Shown: one piece after another, positions 5,631 through 46,367 of the stretch
Position numbering within the stretch: the first letter of the stretch is position 1
Layout: every line of letters begins with the position of its first letter
NCBI GenBank assembly: GCA_037481835.1
Contig: JBBFKW010000016.1
Location: forward strand, 55,502 to 119,501
Length of the DNA: 64,000 bases
Origin: Desulfosoma sp.
GTDB taxonomy: Bacteria > Desulfobacterota > Syntrophobacteria > Syntrophobacterales > DSM-9756
Direction: 5' to 3'
Position numbers and translations under genes: made by a program
The notes under the pieces: model-generated
What the model was told of the DNA's origin: nothing
Database searches by the model: none
Seen by the model: only the letters and a program-made list of their open reading frames with translations

Positions 5631-5681
5631 TCTGGCCGTCGGCCGCCCGTGGCGCCATGGGCCTTAAGGTTCAATAAAACC

Positions 5682-5712
5682 GTAGGTTGGGGTACGCTTC
5701 GCTCACCCCAAC
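5682..5712 (+). repeat. REP-like palindrome, copy 1
   Basis: GTAG + GTTGGGGTACGCTTCGCTCACCCCAAC; 26/27 identical to 25727-25753. Confidence 0.75.
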
Positions 5713-5980
5713 GCCATTCCAGGCGCAGCCACCCCCAACGTCATTCCAAGGGCCAACGCCTCCAACCTCACCCCCCAAGGCAAAGGGGCTGCCCCGAGCC
5801 CACCCCCTTCCCTCGGCGCGGCCTGTCGCCCCCGTCAAGCCGCGTCCGTTCTATCGACAATCCCGATGGAAAGTGTCTTTGGCGATCGCCTTTCCATTGC
5901 CTTCCGGGTCCTGAATGCTCTATTTTCTCTTCAATGGCCCATCAGGGCATCATGGGGACTCACAAAGAAGGAGGAAGGTT

Positions 5981-6331
5981 ATGGCCAATTTCCTTTTTGT
6001 GCTCAGTCGAGACGACCACGAACCCGCCACGCGCTGTTTCCAGTTGGCGAAAATCGCCCATTCCCAGGGGCACAAGGTGGATGTGTTTCTCATCGACGGA
6101 GGGGTTCGTTGGGCGGACACCACTCGGGACTACACGGTCAAGACGGCCACCGGCGATTGCGTTCAGGACTACCTCCCCTATCTGGTGGACAACGAGATTC
6201 CCATCTATGTCTGAATTCCCTGCGCTCGAGCCCGTCAGGTTGACGAGGCGAAGTTTTATTCCAACATGGCCCTGGAAGGCGGCCCATTGCTCATTAAGCT
6301 CGCCGCCGAAGCTAAGGTGTTCAACTTCTAG
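5981..6331 (+). CDS. DsrE/DsrF-like selenoprotein (Sec at codon 78, UxxC motif)
   Basis: GAAGGAGGAAGG RBS; DsrE pattern GHKVDVFLIDGGV; TGA at 6212-6214 followed in frame by IPCARARQVDEAKFYSNMALEGGPLLIKLAAEAKVFNF-stop; SECIS-like hairpin downstream. Confidence 0.85.
6230..6249 (+). promoter_or_regulatory. Putative bacterial SECIS element
   Basis: GCC-CGTCA-GGT-TGACG-A-GGC stem-loop; apical loop starts with G about 24 nt after the UGA. Confidence 0.7.
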
Positions 6332-6338
6332 GGGTATC

Positions 6339-7049
6339 CTAAAACCCCAAATAGGCCTCGCGCACTTTCGGGTCTTTCTCCAGCTCTCGGCTTGATCCGT
6401 GCCGGACGATGCGCCCGCTTTCGATAACGTAGCCGTAGTGGGCGATCCGAAGGGTCTGGTGGACGTTTTGTTCCACGAGAAAGATCGTAAGGCCCATGGC
6501 GTTCAATTCTTGAATCACCCGAAAAACCTCGTGAACCAGGATGGGGGCCAGCCCCAGGCTTGGTTCATCGAACAGGACCAGGGTGGGGTCCTGCATGAGT
6601 CCTCTGCCGATGGCGAGCATTTGCTGCTCGCCTCCGGAGAGGGTTTCGGCGATCTGGTTACGCCTTTCGGCGAGCCGTGGGAAAAGATCATAGACGCGCC
6701 TGAGGTTTTGGGCGCGTTTTTCTTTGGCGCGCTTCAGGTAGGCGCCGAGGATGAGGTTCTCTTCCACGGTCATCTTGGGGAAGAGCTGGCGGCCTTCGGG
6801 AATGAGGGTGATGCCCTGGGCGACAACCTCGTGCACGGGCATGCCACTGATGCGGCGGTTTTCATAGCGGATCTCGCCGGAACTTACAGGCAGCAGGCCG
6901 CAAATGGTCTTGAGCGTCGTGGTTTTTCCGGCCCCGTTGGCCCCGATCAGGGCGATGATCTGGCGTTCTTGGACATCAAGTGTCATGTCCCACAGGGCCT
7001 GCACATCACCGTAATGGGCCGAGACGTCTTGGAGATGAAGGAGGTTCAT
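6339..7049 (-). CDS. livF: Branched-chain amino acid-type ABC transporter ATPase
   Basis: GANGAGKTT, LSGGEQQMLAIGRGLM, DEPSLGLAP, VEQNV. Confidence 0.93.
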   Translation of the reverse strand: MNLLHLQDVSAHYGDVQALWDMTLDVQERQIIALIGANGAGKTTTLKTICGLLPVSSGEIRYENRRISGMPVHEVVAQGITLIPEGRQLFPKMTVEENLILGAYLKRAKEKRAQNLRRVYDLFPRLAERRNQIAETLSGGEQQMLAIGRGLMQDPTLVLFDEPSLGLAPILVHEVFRVIQELNAMGLTIFLVEQNVHQTLRIAHYGYVIESGRIVRHGSSRELEKDPKVREAYLGF

Positions 7050-24520: not shown

Positions 24521-24608
24521 TGGTGCCGAAGCGGGGACTCGAACCCCGACAGGCCTATTGCCCACTAGATCCTGAATCTAGCGCGTCTACCAATTCCGCC
24601 ACTTCGGC
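24521..24608 (-). tRNA. tRNA-Leu(CAG)
   Basis: GCCGAAGTGGCGGAATTGGTAGACGCG CTAGA-TT-CAG-GA-TCTAG, long variable arm, GGTTCGAGTCC, ends CACCA. Confidence 0.97.
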
Positions 24609-24647
24609 ATTATCATACGAAAAAGGCGTTGCCTTGGAAGCGCCGAT

Positions 24648-24676
24648 AAACTATGGTAAAAGCCTTCAGCTGTCAA
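24648..24676 (-). promoter_or_regulatory. Sigma70-type promoter for tRNA-Leu
   Basis: TTGACA-N17-TAGTTT on the minus strand. Confidence 0.55.
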
Positions 24677-24715
24677 GCGCATTTTGTGGTGAAACCGGAG
24701 GTTCCCAAACAAGCG

Positions 24716-25669
24716 ATGAAGGTGATCCGAAGCGTGGAAGACATCCAAAAGCCACTTCACAATCCCGTGATGACCATCGGCAATTTTGACGGGGTCCATC
24801 GCGGCCACAAGGCCTTGTTTCAACGCGTCGTGGATTGGGCGAAAAAACTTGGCGGTCAATCGGTGGTGATGACCTTCGATCCCCACCCTCTCCAGGTGTT
24901 GGCGCCGTCCCGAGGACCGGATTTCATCACATCCCATGGAAAGAAACTGGAACTCATCGAGGCCGAAGGGATCGACGTCACCATCGTGATCCCGTTTAGC
25001 AAGGATTTCGCACAGATTTCCGCCCACGACTTCGTCAAAGACCTTCTCGTGGACCGCATCGGCATCAAGGGGATCGTCGTGGGCTACGATTATCGGTTCG
25101 GCAGAAACCGCGAGGGCGACATCCGCCTGCTGCGGGAACTGGGCAACCGATACGGTTTCCAGGTGGAGATGGTGTCCGGCATTGAGCTGGAGGGCACCCT
25201 GGTGAGCAGCACGGCCATTCGCCAGCTCATCCGCGACGGCGAAATCCGGGAGGCGGAGCGGCTCTTGGGGCGGCCCTATGAAATCGTCGGGCGCGTCGTC
25301 AAAGGGCGCGAGCGGGGGCGGCTCCTGGGATTCCCCACCGCCAACGTGGATGTCCAAAAGCAAGTGCCGCCCAAGCCCGGCGTCTATGCCGTGGAAGTGG
25401 ACCTGGACGGCGAAACCTACATGGGTGCGGCCAACTTCGGATGGAACCCCACCTTCGGGGATCCGACGCCCTCCTTGGAGGTGCACGTGCTGGATTTCGA
25501 CGGCGACCTGTACAACAAGGAAATCGCCGTCCGTTTTGTGGAGCGCATTCGAGACGAGCGGCGCTTCCCCGGCCCGGAAGCCCTTGTCGCCCAGATCCAT
25601 AAGGATGTGGAGACCGTGCGGGGCATTCTGGCCACAAGGAAACCCATGGCCATGGCCGCATCGGGTTGA
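24716..25669 (+). CDS. ribF: Bifunctional riboflavin kinase/FAD synthetase
   Basis: TIGNFDGVHRGH, TFDPHP, VSSTAIR, GRLLGFPTAN, LEVHVLDF. Confidence 0.95.
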   Translation: MKVIRSVEDIQKPLHNPVMTIGNFDGVHRGHKALFQRVVDWAKKLGGQSVVMTFDPHPLQVLAPSRGPDFITSHGKKLELIEAEGIDVTIVIPFSKDFAQISAHDFVKDLLVDRIGIKGIVVGYDYRFGRNREGDIRLLRELGNRYGFQVEMVSGIELEGTLVSSTAIRQLIRDGEIREAERLLGRPYEIVGRVVKGRERGRLLGFPTANVDVQKQVPPKPGVYAVEVDLDGETYMGAANFGWNPTFGDPTPSLEVHVLDFDGDLYNKEIAVRFVERIRDERRFPGPEALVAQIHKDVETVRGILATRKPMAMAASG

Positions 25670-25726
25670 AGCCGCACTGGAACCGTGCCGCGCCCTGCCG
25701 TGATGGGGTGCGGTTTTACGGATCTT

Positions 25727-25753
25727 GTTGGGGTTCGCTTCGCTCACCCCAAC
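25727..25753 (+). repeat. REP-like palindrome, copy 2
   Basis: GTTGGGGTTCGCTTCGCTCACCCCAAC between convergent ribF and hflX. Confidence 0.75.
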
Positions 25754-25779
25754 ACCCCCCAAAAGACCTTCCCCCCTTT

Positions 25780-37894: not shown

Positions 37895-38554
37895 TTAGGG
37901 TTCACATCGGTGTTTGATGTTAACCCCCTGGACGATGAAAATAACACTTTCGGCGATATTCGTCGTTTGGTCGGCCACCCGTTCCAGACATCGCGCGGCG
38001 ATGATGGCCTGCACCGCTCTTTCGATGCTGCGGCTTTCGGTGACCATGAGGTCGATCATGCGCCGCAGGACTTTATCGTTCAGTTCGTCGGCCTCGTCGT
38101 CCATCTGGCAGACATCGTAGGCCTGGCTGATGTTTTGGCGGGCAAAGGAGTCGATGGCCACCCGCAGCATGTCCATGGCGGTTTCGGCCAAGGCGTCCAA
38201 CTCGGGAATGAACTCCAGTGGGGGTCTCTGCGCGAGAAATTGGGCTCGCTGCGCGATGTTCACCGCCTGATCAGCGATCCGTTCCAAGTCGATGCTCATG
38301 CGCAGGGCTCCGATGATAAAACGTAAGTCTTTGGCCACGGGTTGTTCCAAGGCCAGCAGGGAAAGGCACAGGTTGTCGATCTTCATTTCCAGCTGGTTGA
38401 CCACATGGTCTTCCGCGATGACCTGGGCGGCGAGCTTTTCATCTCGGGTTTTGAAAGCCTGGAGGGCCTTGTGCATGGCTTTTTCAGTGAGAGCCGCCAT
38501 TTCCAGCACGGTCATTCTCAGTTCTTCCATCTGCCGGATAAAATGTGATTTCAT
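37895..38554 (-). CDS. phoU: Phosphate signalling protein PhoU
   Basis: QPVAKDLR, DLERIADQAVNIA, LERVADQTTNIAE. Confidence 0.95.
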   Translation of the reverse strand: MKSHFIRQMEELRMTVLEMAALTEKAMHKALQAFKTRDEKLAAQVIAEDHVVNQLEMKIDNLCLSLLALEQPVAKDLRFIIGALRMSIDLERIADQAVNIAQRAQFLAQRPPLEFIPELDALAETAMDMLRVAIDSFARQNISQAYDVCQMDDEADELNDKVLRRMIDLMVTESRSIERAVQAIIAARCLERVADQTTNIAESVIFIVQGVNIKHRCEP

Positions 38555-38579
38555 CACGTCGACTCCAAGGAAACTTTGG

Positions 38580-40388
38580 TCAGCTTTCGGCGCTCTTTTT
38601 CTCTTCGGGTTCGGCGGCCTGTTTTACCGTGAACAAGAATGCCGAGCCTCGGTCCTTGCCCCGCACCGGGCTTTCCACCCAGATCCGTCCCCCCATGTTC
38701 TGCACGATATGGCGGCAGATGGCAAGCCCGAGCCCCGTGCTTCCCGTGGAGGTTTCTCTTTGCCTGTCCACGCGATAGAAGCGTTCAAACACCCGGGCTT
38801 GGTGTTCGGAAGGAATGCCGGGTCCCTCGTCTTCGACGGCGAAAAGGATCGTCTCCTCCCGCACTTCGGCCCGGATGCGGATGGGTGTGTTCGGGCGGCT
38901 ATAGCGCACGGCGTTGTCCAAGAGATTTTGAAAAACCTGGACCAGTGAATCCCGTTCGGCCCGGACCCACAGGGGGCGGTCGGGCAAAAGGGTCTGGATT
39001 TCCATGTTCTTCTTCCGGGCCTCCGGAAGGCATGTTTCCACGGCCGAAGCAATGGCCGAGACGGCGTCCACGGCGGTTTCGGGGATTTGAGGCGGCTGGC
39101 TTTCCAGGCGAGTCAGGGTGAGCAGATCGTTGACCATGCGGCTCATATGGTTGGCTTTGCGCACGATGGTTTCGATGAACATTTTGGCTTCTTCGTCTTG
39201 GGCGCACGGGCTTTCCAGCAGGGTTTCCGCATAGCCCTTGACGGCGGTCAGCGGGGTGCGCAGTTCGTGGGAGACATTGGCCACGAAATCGCGGCGGATT
39301 CTCGCCAGCCGCTTCAGCTCCGTGATGTCGTGCAGGACGATGACCGCCCCCCTCGGCACTACCGGGCTGTGCAGGGAGACCACGTGGACGTCGAAGAATC
39401 GGTCCGGATCCAGGACAACTTCCAGGTGCACGCTGTCTTGACCCGCCAAGACCCGGTCACAGGCCTTCTGCAATTCCGCGTTCAAGAAGACTTCCAAGGG
39501 TTTCAACCCCAAGGGCGATTGGGTCCCGCGCTGGATGTGCAAGGCCGCACGGTTGGCGGCCGTGATCCGCCCTTGGCCGTCCAGGAGAAGCACCCCTTCC
39601 TTCATGCCTTCCAGAATGGCGTGGAGTTGGGCCCGCTGATCTTCCATGCTTTTGAATTGCGTCTCAATCCGCTGGGCGACATCCACAAGCGTCTCTCCCA
39701 AGGCGTCCAAGACGGGATACCCCGACGGGCGCAGTCGAGGGCGTTCCCGGCGTCCCATGGCGCGCACCATTTCCAGCATGGGCGCCAGGGGTTTTTCCAT
39801 GAGCCGGGAGAGAAAAAAAGAGAGGACGCCGGTCGCCGCGAAAGACAGCCCCAAGATCACGGCCAGGTGCAGGCGCTGCTGGTCCAACTTTTCCTTGATC
39901 TGCGAAACCGGCATGGCGATGCGCACGACGCCGTCAGGAAGGTTCGTGATGCCGGAGACGGGCATGGCGCCGTAGAGGAGTTCCTTGCGCAATGTGTCGC
40001 TTCGCCGCACGCTGAACCCGAAACCTTCGCGGCGGGCCGCCGCCACTTCCGGCCGATTCCAATGGTCTTCCATGAACCCGAGTTTGTCGTAGGGCACGTC
40101 GCTGTCGGCCACCACCCGCCCCCCTTGGGCGATGTAGGTGATCCGGATTCCCAAGAGGCTTCCCACTTGGGTGCACCAGTCGTCCAAATCGCTCAGCCAC
40201 TGGAAAGGTTCGTGGCTCGTAAGCGCCCAAAGGACAAAGGTCAGGTTTTGACGGATTCGGGCTCTGGATTCGTCCATAAGGACCTGGTGCAGCTGGCGAT
40301 GGAAATAGGACACGGGCGCCAGCACACACAGCAGGAGCACAACCCAAAAGGCGAGGAGCAATCTGGTGCGCACGCTCACGGGCTTCAT
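38580..40388 (-). CDS. phoR: Phosphate sensor histidine kinase
   Basis: RRDFVANVSHELRTPL, NLLDNAVRY, DEGPGI, FERFYRVD, GLGLAI; PAS domain. Confidence 0.93.
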   Translation of the reverse strand: MKPVSVRTRLLLAFWVVLLLCVLAPVSYFHRQLHQVLMDESRARIRQNLTFVLWALTSHEPFQWLSDLDDWCTQVGSLLGIRITYIAQGGRVVADSDVPYDKLGFMEDHWNRPEVAAARREGFGFSVRRSDTLRKELLYGAMPVSGITNLPDGVVRIAMPVSQIKEKLDQQRLHLAVILGLSFAATGVLSFFLSRLMEKPLAPMLEMVRAMGRRERPRLRPSGYPVLDALGETLVDVAQRIETQFKSMEDQRAQLHAILEGMKEGVLLLDGQGRITAANRAALHIQRGTQSPLGLKPLEVFLNAELQKACDRVLAGQDSVHLEVVLDPDRFFDVHVVSLHSPVVPRGAVIVLHDITELKRLARIRRDFVANVSHELRTPLTAVKGYAETLLESPCAQDEEAKMFIETIVRKANHMSRMVNDLLTLTRLESQPPQIPETAVDAVSAIASAVETCLPEARKKNMEIQTLLPDRPLWVRAERDSLVQVFQNLLDNAVRYSRPNTPIRIRAEVREETILFAVEDEGPGIPSEHQARVFERFYRVDRQRETSTGSTGLGLAICRHIVQNMGGRIWVESPVRGKDRGSAFLFTVKQAAEPEEKKSAES

Positions 40389-41080
40389 GAAACGCTCCGT
40401 TCCCGAAACCGGTATCCCACGCCCCGAATCGTTTCCACCAGATGCGCATAGGGGCCCAGCTTTTGGCGAAGGCGCCGGATGTGGGTGTCCACCGTACGGG
40501 CGTAGCCCTCAAACTGGTAACCCCAAACGCGATCCAACAGCCGGTCGCGGGTAAGCACCCGGCCCCGATTGTGCATCAGCTCCACGAGCAGTTTGAATTC
40601 CGTGGCGGTCAAGAGGACTTCCTCGCCGTCGATCCACACTCGGTGGGCCTGTTCCTCCACGGCGATCCCCTCCACGGACAACACGTCCTGCGCCGGTACG
40701 GGGGCGGCCGCGCGGCGCATGACGGCCTGGACTCGAAGGACCAATTCGCGGGGGCTGAACGGCTTGACCACGTAATCGTCCGCGCCCAATTCCAAACCGA
40801 CGATGCGATCCGCTTCTTCCCCTCGAGCCGTCAACATGATGATGGGCGTGGATGCCGTATCCTTGTTTCTTTTCAGGGTCTTGCACACATCGAGCCCGTC
40901 CATGCCGGGAAGCATGAGATCCAAGACGATGAGATCGGGCTTTTCGCGCAGTGCCGTATCCAGGCCTGAAACTCCATCTTCAGCCTTGAGCACCTCGTAG
41001 TCCGCGGCTTTGAGGTGCCAGGCGACCAGAGTCAAGATGTCCTTATCATCTTCGATGATGAGCACTCTGCCTCGTGCCAA
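40385..41080 (-). CDS. phoB: Phosphate regulon response regulator
   Basis: IIEDD, DLMLPG, GADDYVVKPF, RTVDTHIRRLR; TTG start with GGAGG RBS. Confidence 0.92.
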   Translation of the reverse strand: MARGRVLIIEDDKDILTLVAWHLKAADYEVLKAEDGVSGLDTALREKPDLIVLDLMLPGMDGLDVCKTLKRNKDTASTPIIMLTARGEEADRIVGLELGADDYVVKPFSPRELVLRVQAVMRRAAAPVPAQDVLSVEGIAVEEQAHRVWIDGEEVLLTATEFKLLVELMHNRGRVLTRDRLLDRVWGYQFEGYARTVDTHIRRLRQKLGPYAHLVETIRGVGYRFRERSVS

Positions 41081-41304
41081 GAACGCCTCCGAAAAGGTGT
41101 GCCTTCCCAAAACCCGATGATCCCGCTTGGACGGGACTCCTAAACCTTCTCCAAATCCCGGCCCCTCGGTCTCCGTTCCCGCTGGACAAAACCCGCACGG
41201 CGTCGACGGACGTCCCATGGAAAAGACCGCTGGGGAAACCTGAGCAAAGAACCCGTGACCGTTGAAGGCCGGGTCGAGTATCCGCGAAGAATCAATCGCG
41301 CCTG

Positions 41305-41343
41305 TGTCACAAGACCGTGATGAATGGGTGACATTTGTGTGAC
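41305..41343 (-). promoter_or_regulatory. PHO-box array facing phoB
   Basis: Minus-strand hexamers GTCACA, GTCACC, ATCACG, GTGACA at exact 11-bp spacing. Confidence 0.7.
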
Positions 41344-41405
41344 ACGGGGTCTTCCGAATTCGGATTTCCTTGCTGGTTCGATCAAAATGCAAAGCCCGAC
41401 TGACT

Positions 41406-41444
41406 GTAACATGAATGTCACAGACCGGTAACCTTACGTTCACA
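41406..41444 (+). promoter_or_regulatory. PHO-box array facing pstC
   Basis: GTAACA (41406), GTCACA (41417), GTAACC (41428), TTCACA (41439): 11-bp period. Confidence 0.75.
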
Positions 41445-41516
41445 TGGCCCGTTTAGGGTTTCGTTGTCGCACGAGACGGAATGGGACTCACAGAACCGGT
41501 CCCTTGATTAAAAACG

Positions 41517-42917
41517 ATGAGGCAACCTTCCATGCCCGGCATGATCCTTCTCTCCCTGCTTGTTTTGAGCTCCGCGGCCTATGTTTTGGGGCACCGCCGT
41601 GTGCTCCGGATGGTCGGAGGGCCGGCCCACGCGAGAAACTTGGCCTCCCGCCCCCGTTACTACGGCACCTACGTGGCCTTGTGGTGTGCCGTCCCCGCCC
41701 TTGGGCTCCTTCTCGTTTGGCTTTTCCTGGAACCGATCGTCCTGGATCAACTGGTGCTGCGCCACCTGCCCGACGCCTACCGGGACCTTCCGCCGGAACG
41801 CTTGAGCCTTCTCATGAACGATATCAAGAATCTCGCCAAGGGCGGCATCGTTTCAGCCCAGGCTGAGCCTGCCGTGCAGGAGGCGGCGGAGCATTACCGG
41901 AGATTGCAGGGTCTGGCGAAAACGGCTCTTTGGGTTGTGGTGCTCAGTCTTTCGGCCCTCGGCCTTCACACCGGCTATCGAAAGATCCATGTATCGTTTC
42001 GGGCTCGAAACCAAGTGGAGAAGGTCCTTCACGTTTTTCTCGTGGCCGCTTCGACCATCGCCGTCTTTACCACCATCGGCATTGTTTTTTCTGTTCTTTT
42101 CGAAGCCTTGCGGTTTTTTCGACTCGTGCCGTGGTGGGAATTCCTCTTCGGGCTCAAGTGGAGCCCTCAGATGGCCATCCGCGCCGATCAGGTGGGCGCT
42201 TCGGGCGCTTTTGGCATGATCCCCGTTTTCACGGGAACTCTGCTCATCGCGGCCATCGCCATGGGCATTGCGGTCCCTTTGGGCCTGCTTTCCGCCATTT
42301 ACCTCAGCGAATACGCCCCGAGAGGGGTCCGCGCCGCGGTCAAGCCCATTTTAGAAATTCTGGCAGGGATTCCCACTGTCGTCTACGGTTTTTTTGCCGC
42401 CCTGACGGTCGGGCCCTTGCTGAGGCGTTTAGGGGAAAGCGTAGGACTTTCGGTGGCTTCCGAGAGCGCCCTGGCGGCGGGTTTGGTCATGGGGATCATG
42501 ATCGTGCCGTTCGTTTCGTCGTTATCCGACGATGTCATCAACGCTGTGCCCAACGACCTGCGGGACGGTTCCTTGGCCCTGGGCGCCACCCGATCGGAGA
42601 CCGTCAAACGCGTTGTCTTGCCGGCGGCTTTGCCGGGTATCGTGGGCGGAATCCTGCTCGGAGTGTCCCGGGCCATCGGGGAGACCATGATCGTGGTCAT
42701 GGCCGCAGGGTTGTCCGCCAATTTGACCCTCAATCCCCTGGCGGCCGTAACGACGGTGACGGTCCAGATCGTTACCCTCTTGGTGGGGGATCAAGAGTTC
42801 GACAGTCCCAAGACGTTGGCGGCTTTTGCCTTGGGCCTGGTTCTTTTCGTGCTCACCCTGGTCTTGAACATCATCGCTTTGGTTGTTGTCCGAAAATACC
42901 GAGAGCAATATGAATAA
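41517..42917 (+). CDS. pstC: Phosphate ABC transporter permease
   Basis: KPILEILAGIPTVVYGFFA, GSLALGAT, SRAIGETMIV. Confidence 0.94.
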   Translation: MRQPSMPGMILLSLLVLSSAAYVLGHRRVLRMVGGPAHARNLASRPRYYGTYVALWCAVPALGLLLVWLFLEPIVLDQLVLRHLPDAYRDLPPERLSLLMNDIKNLAKGGIVSAQAEPAVQEAAEHYRRLQGLAKTALWVVVLSLSALGLHTGYRKIHVSFRARNQVEKVLHVFLVAASTIAVFTTIGIVFSVLFEALRFFRLVPWWEFLFGLKWSPQMAIRADQVGASGAFGMIPVFTGTLLIAAIAMGIAVPLGLLSAIYLSEYAPRGVRAAVKPILEILAGIPTVVYGFFAALTVGPLLRRLGESVGLSVASESALAAGLVMGIMIVPFVSSLSDDVINAVPNDLRDGSLALGATRSETVKRVVLPAALPGIVGGILLGVSRAIGETMIVVMAAGLSANLTLNPLAAVTTVTVQIVTLLVGDQEFDSPKTLAAFALGLVLFVLTLVLNIIALVVVRKYREQYE

Positions 42918-44214
42918 GCCGAAAAGTGCCGCATCCCCTTCCGAGGGGCCTTCCCGGTCCCGCACGGTGAGGATCGTCCAAGCGGGTCTCGAAAAGCGCT
43001 ACCGGGCGGAAAAGCGATTCCGGCTGCTGGGCTTGAGCGCCGTGGTGTGCGCCCTCGCCTTTCTGGCGTTCATGTTTGCGGACATCATCGCCAAAGGCCA
43101 CACGGCCTTTCAACAGACGTGCGTCCTCCTGGATCTCTTCGTGGATCCCGACGTGGTCCATGTGGGGAACCTGGATCAGGCCGATTACCAAGGATTGGTG
43201 AAAAGGAGCCTTGAGAAGCATTTCCCCGAGGTCACGGGAAGGCAGGAAAAACGCGAACTCTACAACCTGGTCAGTTCAGGTGCCGGAACGGCGGTGCGGC
43301 AAAAGGTTTTGGAAGACACCTCCGTGATCGGCAAAACCATAGAAGTGTGGGTGCCGGCGAACGACGACGTGGACATGGTCGTCAAGGGCCACGTGGACCG
43401 AAATCTTCCCGAATCCGAGCGGCGTCTGGGGAATCGTGCCCTTGGGTGGATCGAGACCTTGGAATCTCAAGGGCGAATCGCCAAGAAATGGAACAAAACC
43501 TTCTTCACCTCGGGAGATTCGCGGGAACCCGAGTTGGCGGGCATCCTGGGGGCGACGGCCGGCTCCTTCTACACCCTTCTTGTCACCTTGGCCCTGTCGT
43601 TTCCCATCGGTGTCGCCGCGGCCCTCTACCTGGAAGAATTCGCTCCGAAAAACCGCTGGACCGACCTCATTGAAGTGAACATCAACAACCTGGCGGCGGT
43701 GCCGTCCATCGTCTTCGGTCTTTTGGGCCTGGCGGTCTTTCTCTCGTTTTTCGGCCTGCCTCGATCGTCTCCTCTGGTCGGCGGTCTCGTGCTCACCCTC
43801 ATGACGCTGCCGACCATCATCATTGCGGGACGGGCATCCTTGCAGGCCGTTCCCCCTTCCATTCGCGATGCGGCCTTGAGCGTCGGCGCCTCGCGGATGC
43901 AGGCCGTCTTTCATCATGTGCTGCCTCTGGCCCTGCCGGGCATGCTCACCGGGACCATCATTGGGATGGCCCGGGCTCTCGGCGAGACGGCCCCGCTTCT
44001 CATGGTGGGGATGGTGGCCTTCATTGTGGACATTCCCCGCGGGTTCATGGACCCGGCAACGGTGCTTCCCGTGCAGATCTACCTGTGGGCCGACAGTGCG
44101 GAACGCGCTTTTGTGGAAAAAACGTCTGCGGCCATTTTGGTGTTGCTGGCGTTCCTGATCACCATGAACGCCGCGGCGGTCTATCTTCGCAACCGCTTTG
44201 AACGACGCTGGTGA
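42910..44214 (+). CDS. pstA: Phosphate ABC transporter permease
   Basis: NINNLAAVPSIVFGLLGL, ARALGETAPL. Confidence 0.94.
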   Translation: MNKPKSAASPSEGPSRSRTVRIVQAGLEKRYRAEKRFRLLGLSAVVCALAFLAFMFADIIAKGHTAFQQTCVLLDLFVDPDVVHVGNLDQADYQGLVKRSLEKHFPEVTGRQEKRELYNLVSSGAGTAVRQKVLEDTSVIGKTIEVWVPANDDVDMVVKGHVDRNLPESERRLGNRALGWIETLESQGRIAKKWNKTFFTSGDSREPELAGILGATAGSFYTLLVTLALSFPIGVAAALYLEEFAPKNRWTDLIEVNINNLAAVPSIVFGLLGLAVFLSFFGLPRSSPLVGGLVLTLMTLPTIIIAGRASLQAVPPSIRDAALSVGASRMQAVFHHVLPLALPGMLTGTIIGMARALGETAPLLMVGMVAFIVDIPRGFMDPATVLPVQIYLWADSAERAFVEKTSAAILVLLAFLITMNAAAVYLRNRFERRW

Positions 44215-44331
44215 AAAGGAGGTGAGAACAGTCGCAATCGTCGAAACAGGGACCGAACCGTCAATAATGAGAGCCGACGGGCCGCATCGGCACCGGACGG
44301 CACACACGAAGAGACACAAGGAGAACGAACG

Positions 44332-45381
44332 ATGAGACGCCTTTTCCTGACCATGATCGCTCTTTCCATGCTTTGGGCTGTGCAGGATCCCGCTCAGGCT
44401 CTCGCGCGGGACTACATCTACATCGTGGGCTCTTCCACCGTGTATCCCTTCTCCACGGCTGTGGCCGAACAATTCGGAAAAGCCTATGGCTTCAAGACCC
44501 CCAAGGTGGAATCCACGGGAACCGGCGGCGGCTTCAAGCTTTTTTGCGCCGGGGTCGGGGTGGAACATCCCGACATCAGCAACGCCTCGCGCGCCATCAA
44601 GAAATCGGAACTGGAAACCTGCGCTCAAAACGGGGTCAAAGAGATCGTCGAAGTGAAAATCGGCTATGATGGCATCGTCGTGGCCAACAGCAAGAAATCG
44701 GCGGTGATGAAACTCACCCGCAAGGATCTTTTCATGGCCTTGGCGGCGGAAATCCCCGATCCCAAAGGCGGTGCGGCAATGGTCAAAAACCCCTTCAAGA
44801 CGTGGAAAGACGTCAACCCCGCCCTGCCCGACGTGAAGATCGAAGTGCTGGGGCCTCCTCCCACCTCCGGGACCCGCGATGCTTTCTTGGAGCTGGCCAT
44901 GGAAGAAGGGGCCTTGGAAATCGCTTCTTTGAAGGAGCTCAAGAAGAGCGATGAAAAGGCCTTTAAGAAAGTGGCCCATAGCATCCGGGAAGACGGGGCA
45001 TGGATCGACGCCGGCGAAAACGACAACCTCATCGTGCAGAAACTTTTGGCCAATCCCAATGCGGTGGGGGTTTTCGGGTTCAGCTTCCTCGACCAAAACA
45101 CGGACAAGATCCAGGGTGCCGAGGTGAACGGCGTCGCTCCCACCTTCGAGAGCATTTCGGCCCAGAAGTACCCGCTATCCAGGCCGCTCTTTTTCTACGT
45201 CAAGAAGGCCCATGTGGGCAGCATCCCTGGCATTCAGGAATTCGTCAAGGAATTCACCGAGGATAAGGCGTGGGGTCCACAGGGCTATTTGGCGGACAAG
45301 GGGCTCATCCCGCTGCCGGATGCGGAAAGGGCGTCCATGCGTGAAGCGGCCCGTGCCTTGAAAGTGCTCGCCGTGCAGTAG
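44332..45381 (+). CDS. pstS: Phosphate ABC transporter binding protein
   Basis: Signal peptide, [33 protein letters not shown]. Confidence 0.93.
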
Positions 45382-45536
45382 TCTTTCGAGGGAAATTGTT
45401 CGGAAACGGGCGCCCGTTCCAAGGGCGCCCGGGCAAAAACTATGCGAATGAATCGGTATTGAGTAAGATGATGGATGCCTTCGTGAGCGCAAGAAGCCTT
45501 AGAGGCCTGAAAGAGCCGACGCAAGGGGACCGTTCC

Positions 45537-46367
45537 GTGGCGGAACCAAAGAAGACTGCTGGAGGATCTCAGGACCTTCCCGGGAAAACCGTCGGAGATG
45601 TGCACGTGGCCAATCCCCGCATGACGTGCCGCCATGTGAACGTCTTTTACGGGGACAAGCAGGCCATTCGGGATGTGTCCATCGATATCGGCCGCAACGA
45701 GGTGCTCGCCATGATCGGCCCTTCCGGATGCGGCAAGTCCACCTTCCTGCGCTGCCTGAACCGCATGAACGATACCATCGAGGGGTGCCGCGTCACGGGA
45801 ACCATCACCCTGGACGGACAGGATATCTATGACCCTTCCCTGGATGTGGTGCTCCTGCGCGCTCAGGTGGGCATGGTTTTCCAGAAACCCAACCCGTTTC
45901 CCAAGTCCATTTATGAAAATGTGGCCTACGGTCCCAAGATTCACGGCCTGGCCCAAAGCCGGGAAGAACTGGACGAAATTGTGGAAACGTCCCTTCGGAA
46001 AGCGGGGTTGTGGGAGGAAGTGAAAGATCGGCTGAACCAGTCGGGCACGGGCCTTTCCGGAGGGCAGCAGCAAAGGCTGTGCATCGCTCGGGCCATCGCC
46101 GTCAACCCCGAAGTCATCCTTATGGATGAGCCGTGCTCCGCCCTGGACCCCATCGCCACCGGCCGCATCGAAGACCTGATCCACGAGCTGCGGGAGCAGT
46201 ACAGTATTGTCATCGTCACCCATTCCATGCAGCAGGCGGCCCGAGTCTCCCAGAGGACGGCTTTTTTCCACATGGGCGATCTCATCGAAGTGGGCCCTAC
46301 CGACCGCATTTTTACCCGACCCCGCCACAAACTCACGGAAGACTACATCACCGGGCGCTTTGGCTAG
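45537..46367 (+). CDS. pstB: Phosphate ABC transporter ATPase (start uncertain)
   Basis: [37 protein letters not shown]. Confidence 0.94.

Follow-up and report, generated by a model that had tools for sequence, protein, structure and literature searches.

Does the TGA at positions 6212-6214 of this Desulfosoma sp. DNA end a short gene, or does it encode selenocysteine within a longer one? On the 64,000-nucleotide stretch of contig JBBFKW010000016.1 that was analysed (hereafter the window), the ATG at 5981 opens a frame that reaches this TGA after 77 codons and, beyond it, carries on for 38 sense codons to a TAG at 6331-6333. When the TGA is translated as selenocysteine (Sec, U), the product is a protein of 116 aa with the motif IYV-U-IP-C (U78-I-P-C81). 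A sequence-only reading had proposed the same TGA, the 38 further codons, the TAG at 6331 and the 116-aa length, and both the sequence and its translation agree with it on every point. In the account that we favour, to which we give a probability of roughly 0.9 on the strength of sequence comparison, 5981-6333 is one intact 116-aa selenoprotein gene of the DsrE-like (PF02635, UxxC) family. The features to which the argument refers are the following.

5968-5974, + strand: ribosome-binding site AAGGAGG, 6 nt 5′ of the ATG at 5981, read from the sequence.
5981-6333, + strand: predicted selenoprotein gene, dsrE-like, of 116 codons (the TGA being codon 78), followed by TAG.
6212-6214, + strand: putative selenocysteine codon 78, an in-frame TGA, with Cys/TGA pairing in relatives and aligned with Cys78 of 2hy5_A.
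6221-6223, + strand: Cys81 (TGC), second residue of the U-x-x-C motif, invariant in the 38 rows of the protein alignment (A1, below) and in all 65 Sec forms.
6230-6249, + strand: SECIS-like hairpin, GCC-CGUCA-GGU-UGACG-A-GGC, with a conserved core at 6233-6245 (CGUC-AGGUU-GACG).

Under translation table 11, the open reading frame (ORF) in the dsrE-like frame begins at an upstream in-frame ATG (5915) and ends at TGA 6212-6214. The ATG at 5915 was ruled out as the start codon, since the homologues all start with MANFLF, which corresponds to the ATG at 5981, and the AAGGAGG sequence precedes the latter. A second ORF of 248 aa (5649-6395, + strand) spans the whole dsrE-like gene in another frame; because the sequence is G+C-rich (58.8% in the window) and this ORF belongs to no Pfam family, it was taken as spurious.

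One explanation of the locus is that the TGA is a true stop, and that what precedes it is a truncated DsrE fragment of 77 aa or a recent pseudogene whose downstream frame is decaying. Several properties of the window agree with it. Table 11 terminates the ORF at this very triplet, and TGA is the commonest stop of the window, being the ordinary stop in 16 of its 34 Pfam-supported genes. Nor is it rare here for a frame to stay open by chance for 38 codons behind a TGA: past the stop, 4 of the 16 Pfam-supported genes with a terminal TGA have a longer run. Moreover, selA, selB, selD and a tRNA-Sec gene were sought and none was found within the 64-kb window. Because TGA serves as an ordinary stop in so many of these genes, there is no global reassignment of the codon, and any recoding must be local.

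The evidence against termination comes from the relatives of the gene. The Pfam profile PF02635 (DsrE) matches residues 4-116 of the read-through product with its positions 3-116 of 116 (E = 1.6e-17, 64.1 bits for a cut-off of 22.7), that is, from end to end. A search of the protein collection with the same product retrieved 659 homologues, and the 120 that were listed share 63-74% identity with it; 113 of these 120 are 116 aa long, in keeping with the earlier claim that this is a normal DsrE length. We aligned the query with 37 of the 120 listed homologues, picked mainly by long contigs or source names (alignment A1). All 37 carry Cys at codon 78, within a C-x-P-C motif. Throughout this alignment C78 (U in the query), P80, C81 and the C-terminal VFNF are invariant, as is C19, and C60 is nearly so, being replaced by Ser or Ala in 2 of the 37 Cys-form homologues.

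A genome scan, in which each species was represented by one genome, yielded 427 relatives, and codon 78 was counted in the best 80 of these 427. Codon 78 is TGA in 64 relatives and a Cys codon in the other 16, namely TGC in 12 and TGT in 4. The Sec form is thus the majority state (64/80) among the closest Desulfobacterota relatives within these best 80 of 427. In all 64 TGA-form relatives the frame stays open beyond the TGA until the same ...KVFNF end. The pairing of Cys with UGA that the sequence-only reading would predict is therefore found in both collections, all of the aligned proteins and 16 of the 80 genomic relatives having Cys. The 38 codons after the TGA, which lie within the part of the protein covered by the Pfam match, are likewise conserved to the last residue. 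A true stop is hard to reconcile with these observations, since TGA recurs over many lineages with a downstream frame that is each time intact and conserved, and the 38 codons of the window match the family up to their very end.

Among the best 80 of 427, the nearest relatives are two Desulfacinum records with 86% and 85% identity, both of which carry TGA. On a quick tree from which columns 78-90 were omitted, this pair groups with the window protein with an SH-aLRT value of 99. The window protein and both Desulfacinum proteins also deviate together at two near-invariant positions, Gly76, which is Tyr just before the Sec, and His103, which is Leu.

In bacteria, selenocysteine is decoded by means of a SECIS hairpin that recruits SelB carrying Sec-tRNA(Sec). 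A hairpin at 6230-6249 had been noticed by the sequence-only reading in the position where a bacterial SECIS would lie, and it is indeed the minimum free energy fold of 6228-6251, with -10.8 kcal/mol against -4.6±2.1 kcal/mol in shuffled sequences (z = -3.0); 2 of 200 shuffles of this 24-nt segment are as stable. Longer contexts fold like their shuffles (z = -0.63 for 44 nt and -0.29 for 71 nt). The window contains the 13-base core a single time, and at least one match with no more than one mismatch appears in 27 of 100 shuffles. It is consequently the comparison with relatives, and not any single-sequence feature, that raises both the hairpin and the open frame far above chance.

For this comparison, the 60 nt starting from the TGA were aligned without gaps in 65 TGA forms, namely the 64 loci and the window. 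No change occurs in columns 22-29 (CGTCAGGT), and columns 31-36 (GACGAG) are nearly invariant. RNAalifold pairs columns 22-25 with 31-34 in a stem that is kept in all 65 sequences, with one G-U pair. There is no covariation in this stem, as it never varies: no pair shows a double change in any of the 65 TGA forms, so that the support comes from synonymous-site conservation instead. At 76 codons, at least 90% of the 65 sequences encode one and the same amino acid; when these codons were ranked by relative codon entropy, the four lowest values fell on the hairpin: Arg85 (CGT in 65/65, entropy 0), Gln86 (CAG in 65/65, entropy 0), Asp88 (GAC in 64/65, entropy 0.11) and Glu89 (GAG in 62/65, entropy 0.27). 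The next value is 0.33 and most lie between 0.7 and 1.0. In contrast with the hairpin codons, Arg18 and Arg49 use six codons each, and Val87 can have any of T, G, A and C as its third base, a loop position that varies freely. Of the 64 other TGA forms, 63 carry the 13-mer in exact form and with an unchanged offset, and the hairpin was absent from the four diverged Cys forms that were folded (4/4).

What is conserved, then, is a 4-bp stem (CGUC/GACG) closing an A-GGU-N loop, whose core begins 18 nt past the UGA and lies within codons 84-90. Most sequences add one or two pairs to it (of 63 distinct rows, 50 keep C20-G36 and 44 keep U21-A35), and the window hairpin is extended differently, by GCC/GGC with a bulged A. 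The hairpin first described thus holds up in its fold, its position and its frozen synonymous sites, with its conserved core trimmed to CGUC/GACG. No Rfam family matched the hairpin when the whole window was searched at gathering thresholds, and at E ≤ 10 the region 6150-6340 gave only a chance lncRNA match (E = 9.8). A small apical loop containing G, shortly after the UGA, is the bacterial SECIS signature as it is described in the SECIS passages of PMC1088965. Taken together, the codon-level pattern argues that the hairpin is an element under selection at the RNA level.

A nucleotide-invariant hairpin behind the TGA is a further observation that a true stop leaves without a place. In addition, according to the structural model described below, a product of 77 aa would be deprived of the last third of the fold, comprising the helix 79-84, two strands and a helix. 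We consider termination at codon 78 the most improbable of the explanations for this locus.

Could the UGA be read through, but not as selenocysteine? Cys or Trp might be inserted by near-cognate suppression, for example after loss of the Sec machinery, and it can be said for this possibility that the machinery is not seen in the window and that the family has frequently switched between Sec and Cys, the quick tree requiring at least five changes among 81 rows. Nevertheless, the lineages that dropped Sec changed the codon to TGC or TGT (the 16 Cys forms among the 80), and the maintenance of TGA together with an intact hairpin is expected only under a working SelB-dependent decoding. Both of the nearest Desulfacinum loci also retain the TGA and the hairpin. 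We hold suppression of this kind to be very improbable. Recoding to selenocysteine is the reading that we prefer: the UGA at codon 78 would be recoded through the small hairpin that follows it, and the hairpin, by the established bacterial mechanism, would recruit SelB with its Sec-tRNA(Sec). From the sequence evidence we infer that Sec is actually inserted in Desulfosoma sp.

Three Cys forms deserve attention in their own right. The loci L014, L025 and L027 carry TGC at codon 78 (6232-6234, 6232-6234 and 867-869, respectively) and retain the SECIS-like hairpin sequence, the 13-mer being exact in L025 and L027 and altered by one change in L014. On the quick tree they pair with the TGA forms L054, L064 and L061, with SH-aLRT values of 82-90, which are not starred. 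Judging from these remnants, Sec seems to have been exchanged for Cys recently in all three, leaving a fossil SECIS behind.

As for Sec decoding elsewhere in these genomes, no tRNA-Sec gene was found near the relatives in loci L001-L060. A peroxiredoxin gene with TGA at the codon of the peroxidatic Cys (DFTFV-TGA-ATE) was observed in locus L040 (4792-5514, + strand) and also in L004, L010, L012 and L041, so that this signature is present in 5 of the 80 loci. It is located upstream of the TGA-form dsrE-like gene, at a distance of about 1 kb in L004, L012 and L040, and of about 2.7 and 4.7 kb in L010 and L041, respectively; in L040, an ORF with a MOSC domain stands between the two genes. When the L040 peroxiredoxin is translated with TGA as U, the AhpC-TSA profile matches it across the TGA over positions 1-122 of 124 (E = 5e-37). 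These five relatives thus provide independent evidence that their own genomes decode Sec. The passages of PMC1794560 devoted to Syntrophobacter fumaroxidans credit it with 31 genes for selenoproteins, which was the largest selenoproteome described in 2006, and our literature search found no paper linking Desulfacinum with selenocysteine.

Within the window itself, 60 read-through candidates were collected and 33 of them tested, none of which revealed a second gene with a Pfam domain spanning a TGA; the other 27 seemed, on visual inspection, to be for the most part ORFs that overlap Pfam-supported genes or lie antisense to them. Two arrangements met in this survey are worth recording. One, at 41481-46367 and 37895-41443, is a phosphate-uptake cluster on the + strand, with pstC-like, pstA-like, PBP_like_2 (pstS-like) and pstB-like genes, next to which phoU, a histidine kinase and a response regulator lie on the - strand; because the gene junctions of the pst cluster are at TGA stops, TGA read-through artificially fuses its genes. 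The other is a gene for a ribF-type FAD synthetase/riboflavin kinase at 24653-25700 (+ strand), opposite a family-less ORF of 391 aa at 24587-25762 (- strand), a case which indicates that several family-less ORFs of the window survey are wrong-strand picks.

What might a selenocysteine do in such a protein? The AlphaFold2 model is of high confidence (pLDDT 97.6, pTM 0.90) and places residue 78 at the end of the strand 75-78 and at the start of the helix 79-84. Foldseek comparison gave YchN, DsrE and TusD as the best matches, with TM scores of 0.75-0.80, within DsrE-fold matches that range overall from 0.72 to 0.85. When the profile of alignment A1 was compared with solved structures, it matched the DsrE/DsrF-like protein of Sulfolobus best (3mc3_A, E = 2.2e-5) and also DsrE of A. 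vinosum (2hy5_A, E = 0.009). Column 78, counted by hand on the printed alignment, falls on a Cys in 3mc3 and on Cys78 of DsrE. The model and these alignments indicate that the protein has the DsrE/YchN alpha/beta fold and that Sec78 sits at the position of DsrE-Cys78 and TusD-Cys78.

In its Cys version, this position is treated in the sections of PMC3397948 dealing with these proteins. According to them, DsrE-Cys78 is essential in vivo, binds sulfane sulfur and hands it to DsrC; within TusBCD, the sole essential Cys is TusD-Cys78; and the position has been proposed as the active site of the entire superfamily. The window protein thus has the same fold as DsrE (A. vinosum DsrEFH, PDB 2HY5) and TusD (E. 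coli TusBCD, PDB 2D1P), with TM scores of 0.75 and 0.78, and its residue 78 aligns with their persulfide-carrying Cys78, but identity with them is only about 20%. It also scores far below the cut-offs of the TusD equivalog models (18.4 bits for 89.25 in TIGR03012 and 15.9 for 92 in NF001237), and no partner genes of the DsrF/DsrH or TusC/TusB type are found near it. With respect to DsrE, it has Sec in place of Cys and, in addition, Cys81 and Cys19, neither of which has a counterpart in DsrE 2hy5_A or in 3mc3. The sequence-only reading was right to align the UGA with the first Cys of this site; its description of CxxC as a mark of DsrE-like proteins in general does not stand, as the second Cys is missing from both of these structures. 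Given this lack of Cys81 and Cys19 in DsrE and 3mc3, the UxxC pair is an invention of the subfamily that overlies the sulfur-carrying residue of the superfamily.

The closest structural likeness is with YchN of E. coli (PDB 1JX7; 1jx7_A, E = 3.5e-7, TM 0.80), and the closest sequence-profile likeness is with 3MC3. Both are, like the window protein, single-domain proteins of similar size, encoded by single genes and with a DsrE fold. 3MC3 has the first Cys and a Ser at the second position, where the window protein has Cys81, and neither entry shows a selenocysteine in its name or in the matched sequence.

On this basis, we tentatively favour, at slightly under an even chance, a selenium-dependent persulfide/polysulfide or thiol-disulfide reductase over a passive sulfur relay, with both substrate and reductant presumed. 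In such an enzyme, the U78 selenolate would attack a sulfane sulfur or a disulfide on the substrate; Cys81, three residues further on, would resolve the adduct to an internal selenenylsulfide, and a cellular thiol reductant would then re-reduce the U78-C81 selenenylsulfide. A Sec-dependent sulfur-transfer or redox protein had already been suggested from the UxxC motif, and the alignment of U78 with DsrE-Cys78 strengthens that suggestion. A more general proposal, which we find possible although rather unlikely, is that the clade defined by Sec at the Cys78 position and by Cys81, perhaps with Cys19 and Cys60, would consist of selenenylsulfide-cycling enzymes that reduce or pass on sulfane sulfur or selenium.

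The main functional rival to the reductase is a role in metal or selenium handling. The UGA would still be decoded as Sec, but U78, C81, C19 and C60 would form a metal, iron-sulfur or selenium-handling site in a protein of metal or selenium trafficking. A protein of 116 aa with four conserved Cys/Sec residues, of which C19 is invariant and C60 nearly so, and of which C19 and C81 are lacking in DsrE and 3mc3, would be compatible with such a site; the exchange of C60 for Ser or Ala in two Cys-form homologues is less so. The UxxC at the start of a helix is also the usual redox arrangement in the selenoprotein families listed in the corresponding part of PMC1088965. A second line of comparison is with YedF, which the relevant passage of PMC5322559 presents as linked to selenium use and as having a DsrE-like domain with CGxC, and with SaoD, which has a DsrE-like CxxC domain and was "never detected as a selenoprotein" (bioRxiv 10.1101/2022.07.06.499078). 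Both have links to selenium or organometal systems, and both resemble the window protein in that a CxxC-type motif accompanies a DsrE-like domain. Yet YedF carries an N-terminal SirA-like domain, whereas the window protein is a single domain of 116 aa, and the NCBIfam model for YedF (TIGR03527) gave no match at E values up to 1.

Nor does gene context decide between the two roles. In the window, the genes upstream on the same strand are a rluD-like gene, a PC4-like gene and an ORF without family, and a liv-type ABC transporter lies downstream in convergent orientation. Among the sources compared, the most widespread neighbour cluster occurs in 12 of 81. The recurrent minority neighbours (CGGC, Nitro_FeMo-Co, NifU_N, MOSC, DUF169-CoaE, CoA-disulfide-reductase-rhodanese, DUF364 and peroxiredoxin) are a mixture of redox, sulfur and metal proteins, and no DsrE-fold protein is found among the recurrent neighbours of the 80 loci. 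NifU_N, Nitro_FeMo-Co, CGGC, MOSC and DUF364 ("heavy-metal chelation") would suit the metal- or selenium-handling role, but none of these neighbours occurs in more than 9 of 81 sources. Because the neighbourhood is not conserved, it gives no operon-level functional clue, and because the neighbours are mixed and none is found in more than 12 of 81 sources, it leaves the choice between reductase and metal roles undecided. All things considered, we judge metal or selenium handling unlikely.

How does this gene relate to what was already known of the family? That DsrE-like selenoproteins had been predicted before and that their function was unresolved, as stated in the sequence-only reading, is borne out by the literature. 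The section of PMC1088965 on this family (Zhang, Fomenko & Gladyshev, 2005) describes two Sargasso Sea sequences, gives Pfam02635 for them and includes a SECIS figure; PMC1794560, in the part concerned, counts one member, in Desulfovibrio vulgaris; and the corresponding passage of PMC1976440 reports three DsrE-like selenoprotein genes in the Olavius symbionts Delta-1 and Delta-4, two of them in Delta-1. Reviews of 2022 and 2026 list DsrE-like as "predicted with high confidence", with WP_014524487.1 as reference (PMC9312934, PMC13188914), and place it among the families whose functions "remain largely uncharacterized". Our literature search turned up no experimental work on members of the DsrE-like UxxC selenoprotein family. 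The window gene shares with this family PF02635, a UGA as the first residue of UxxC, a SECIS-like hairpin with a G in its loop and Cys-containing homologues, and one of the TGA forms that we collected, from an Olavius Delta-1 metagenome-assembled genome (L049), is 73% identical to the window protein. In comparison with the two, one and three members given in those parts of the early reports, the Sec form is found here in 64 of 80 close relatives.

Why is the complete protein hard to find in databases? Gene callers will end the dsrE-like gene at codon 77, and the table-11 ORFs of the family have a median length of 81 aa. The 37 homologues that were aligned from among the 120 listed protein-database hits include no Sec form, and the best identity to the window protein is 86% for the genomic Sec forms against 74% for the listed protein homologues. 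Since gene callers stop at codon 77 and the aligned protein homologues are all Cys forms, the correct product is missing from annotation. The present result is accordingly a sound correction of annotation rather than a discovery: the family has been predicted since 2005, and a selenoprotein specialist would not be surprised by it. What the analysis adds is codon-level support, across 65 genomes, that the hairpin acts as a SECIS, the predominance of Sec among close relatives, and the placement of Sec on the DsrE-Cys78 sulfur-carrier position.

DsrE-like is one of many predicted bacterial selenoprotein families to which no function has been assigned. The combination of a Sec at the sulfur-carrying position, the dominance of the Sec form and a frozen SECIS now offers a testable hypothesis together with natural Sec/Cys pairs. 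If the more general proposal of selenenylsulfide-cycling enzymes is true, sulfate reducers and syntrophs would depend on selenium for one step of their sulfur metabolism, with Sec as the default in most close relatives and not a rare variant.
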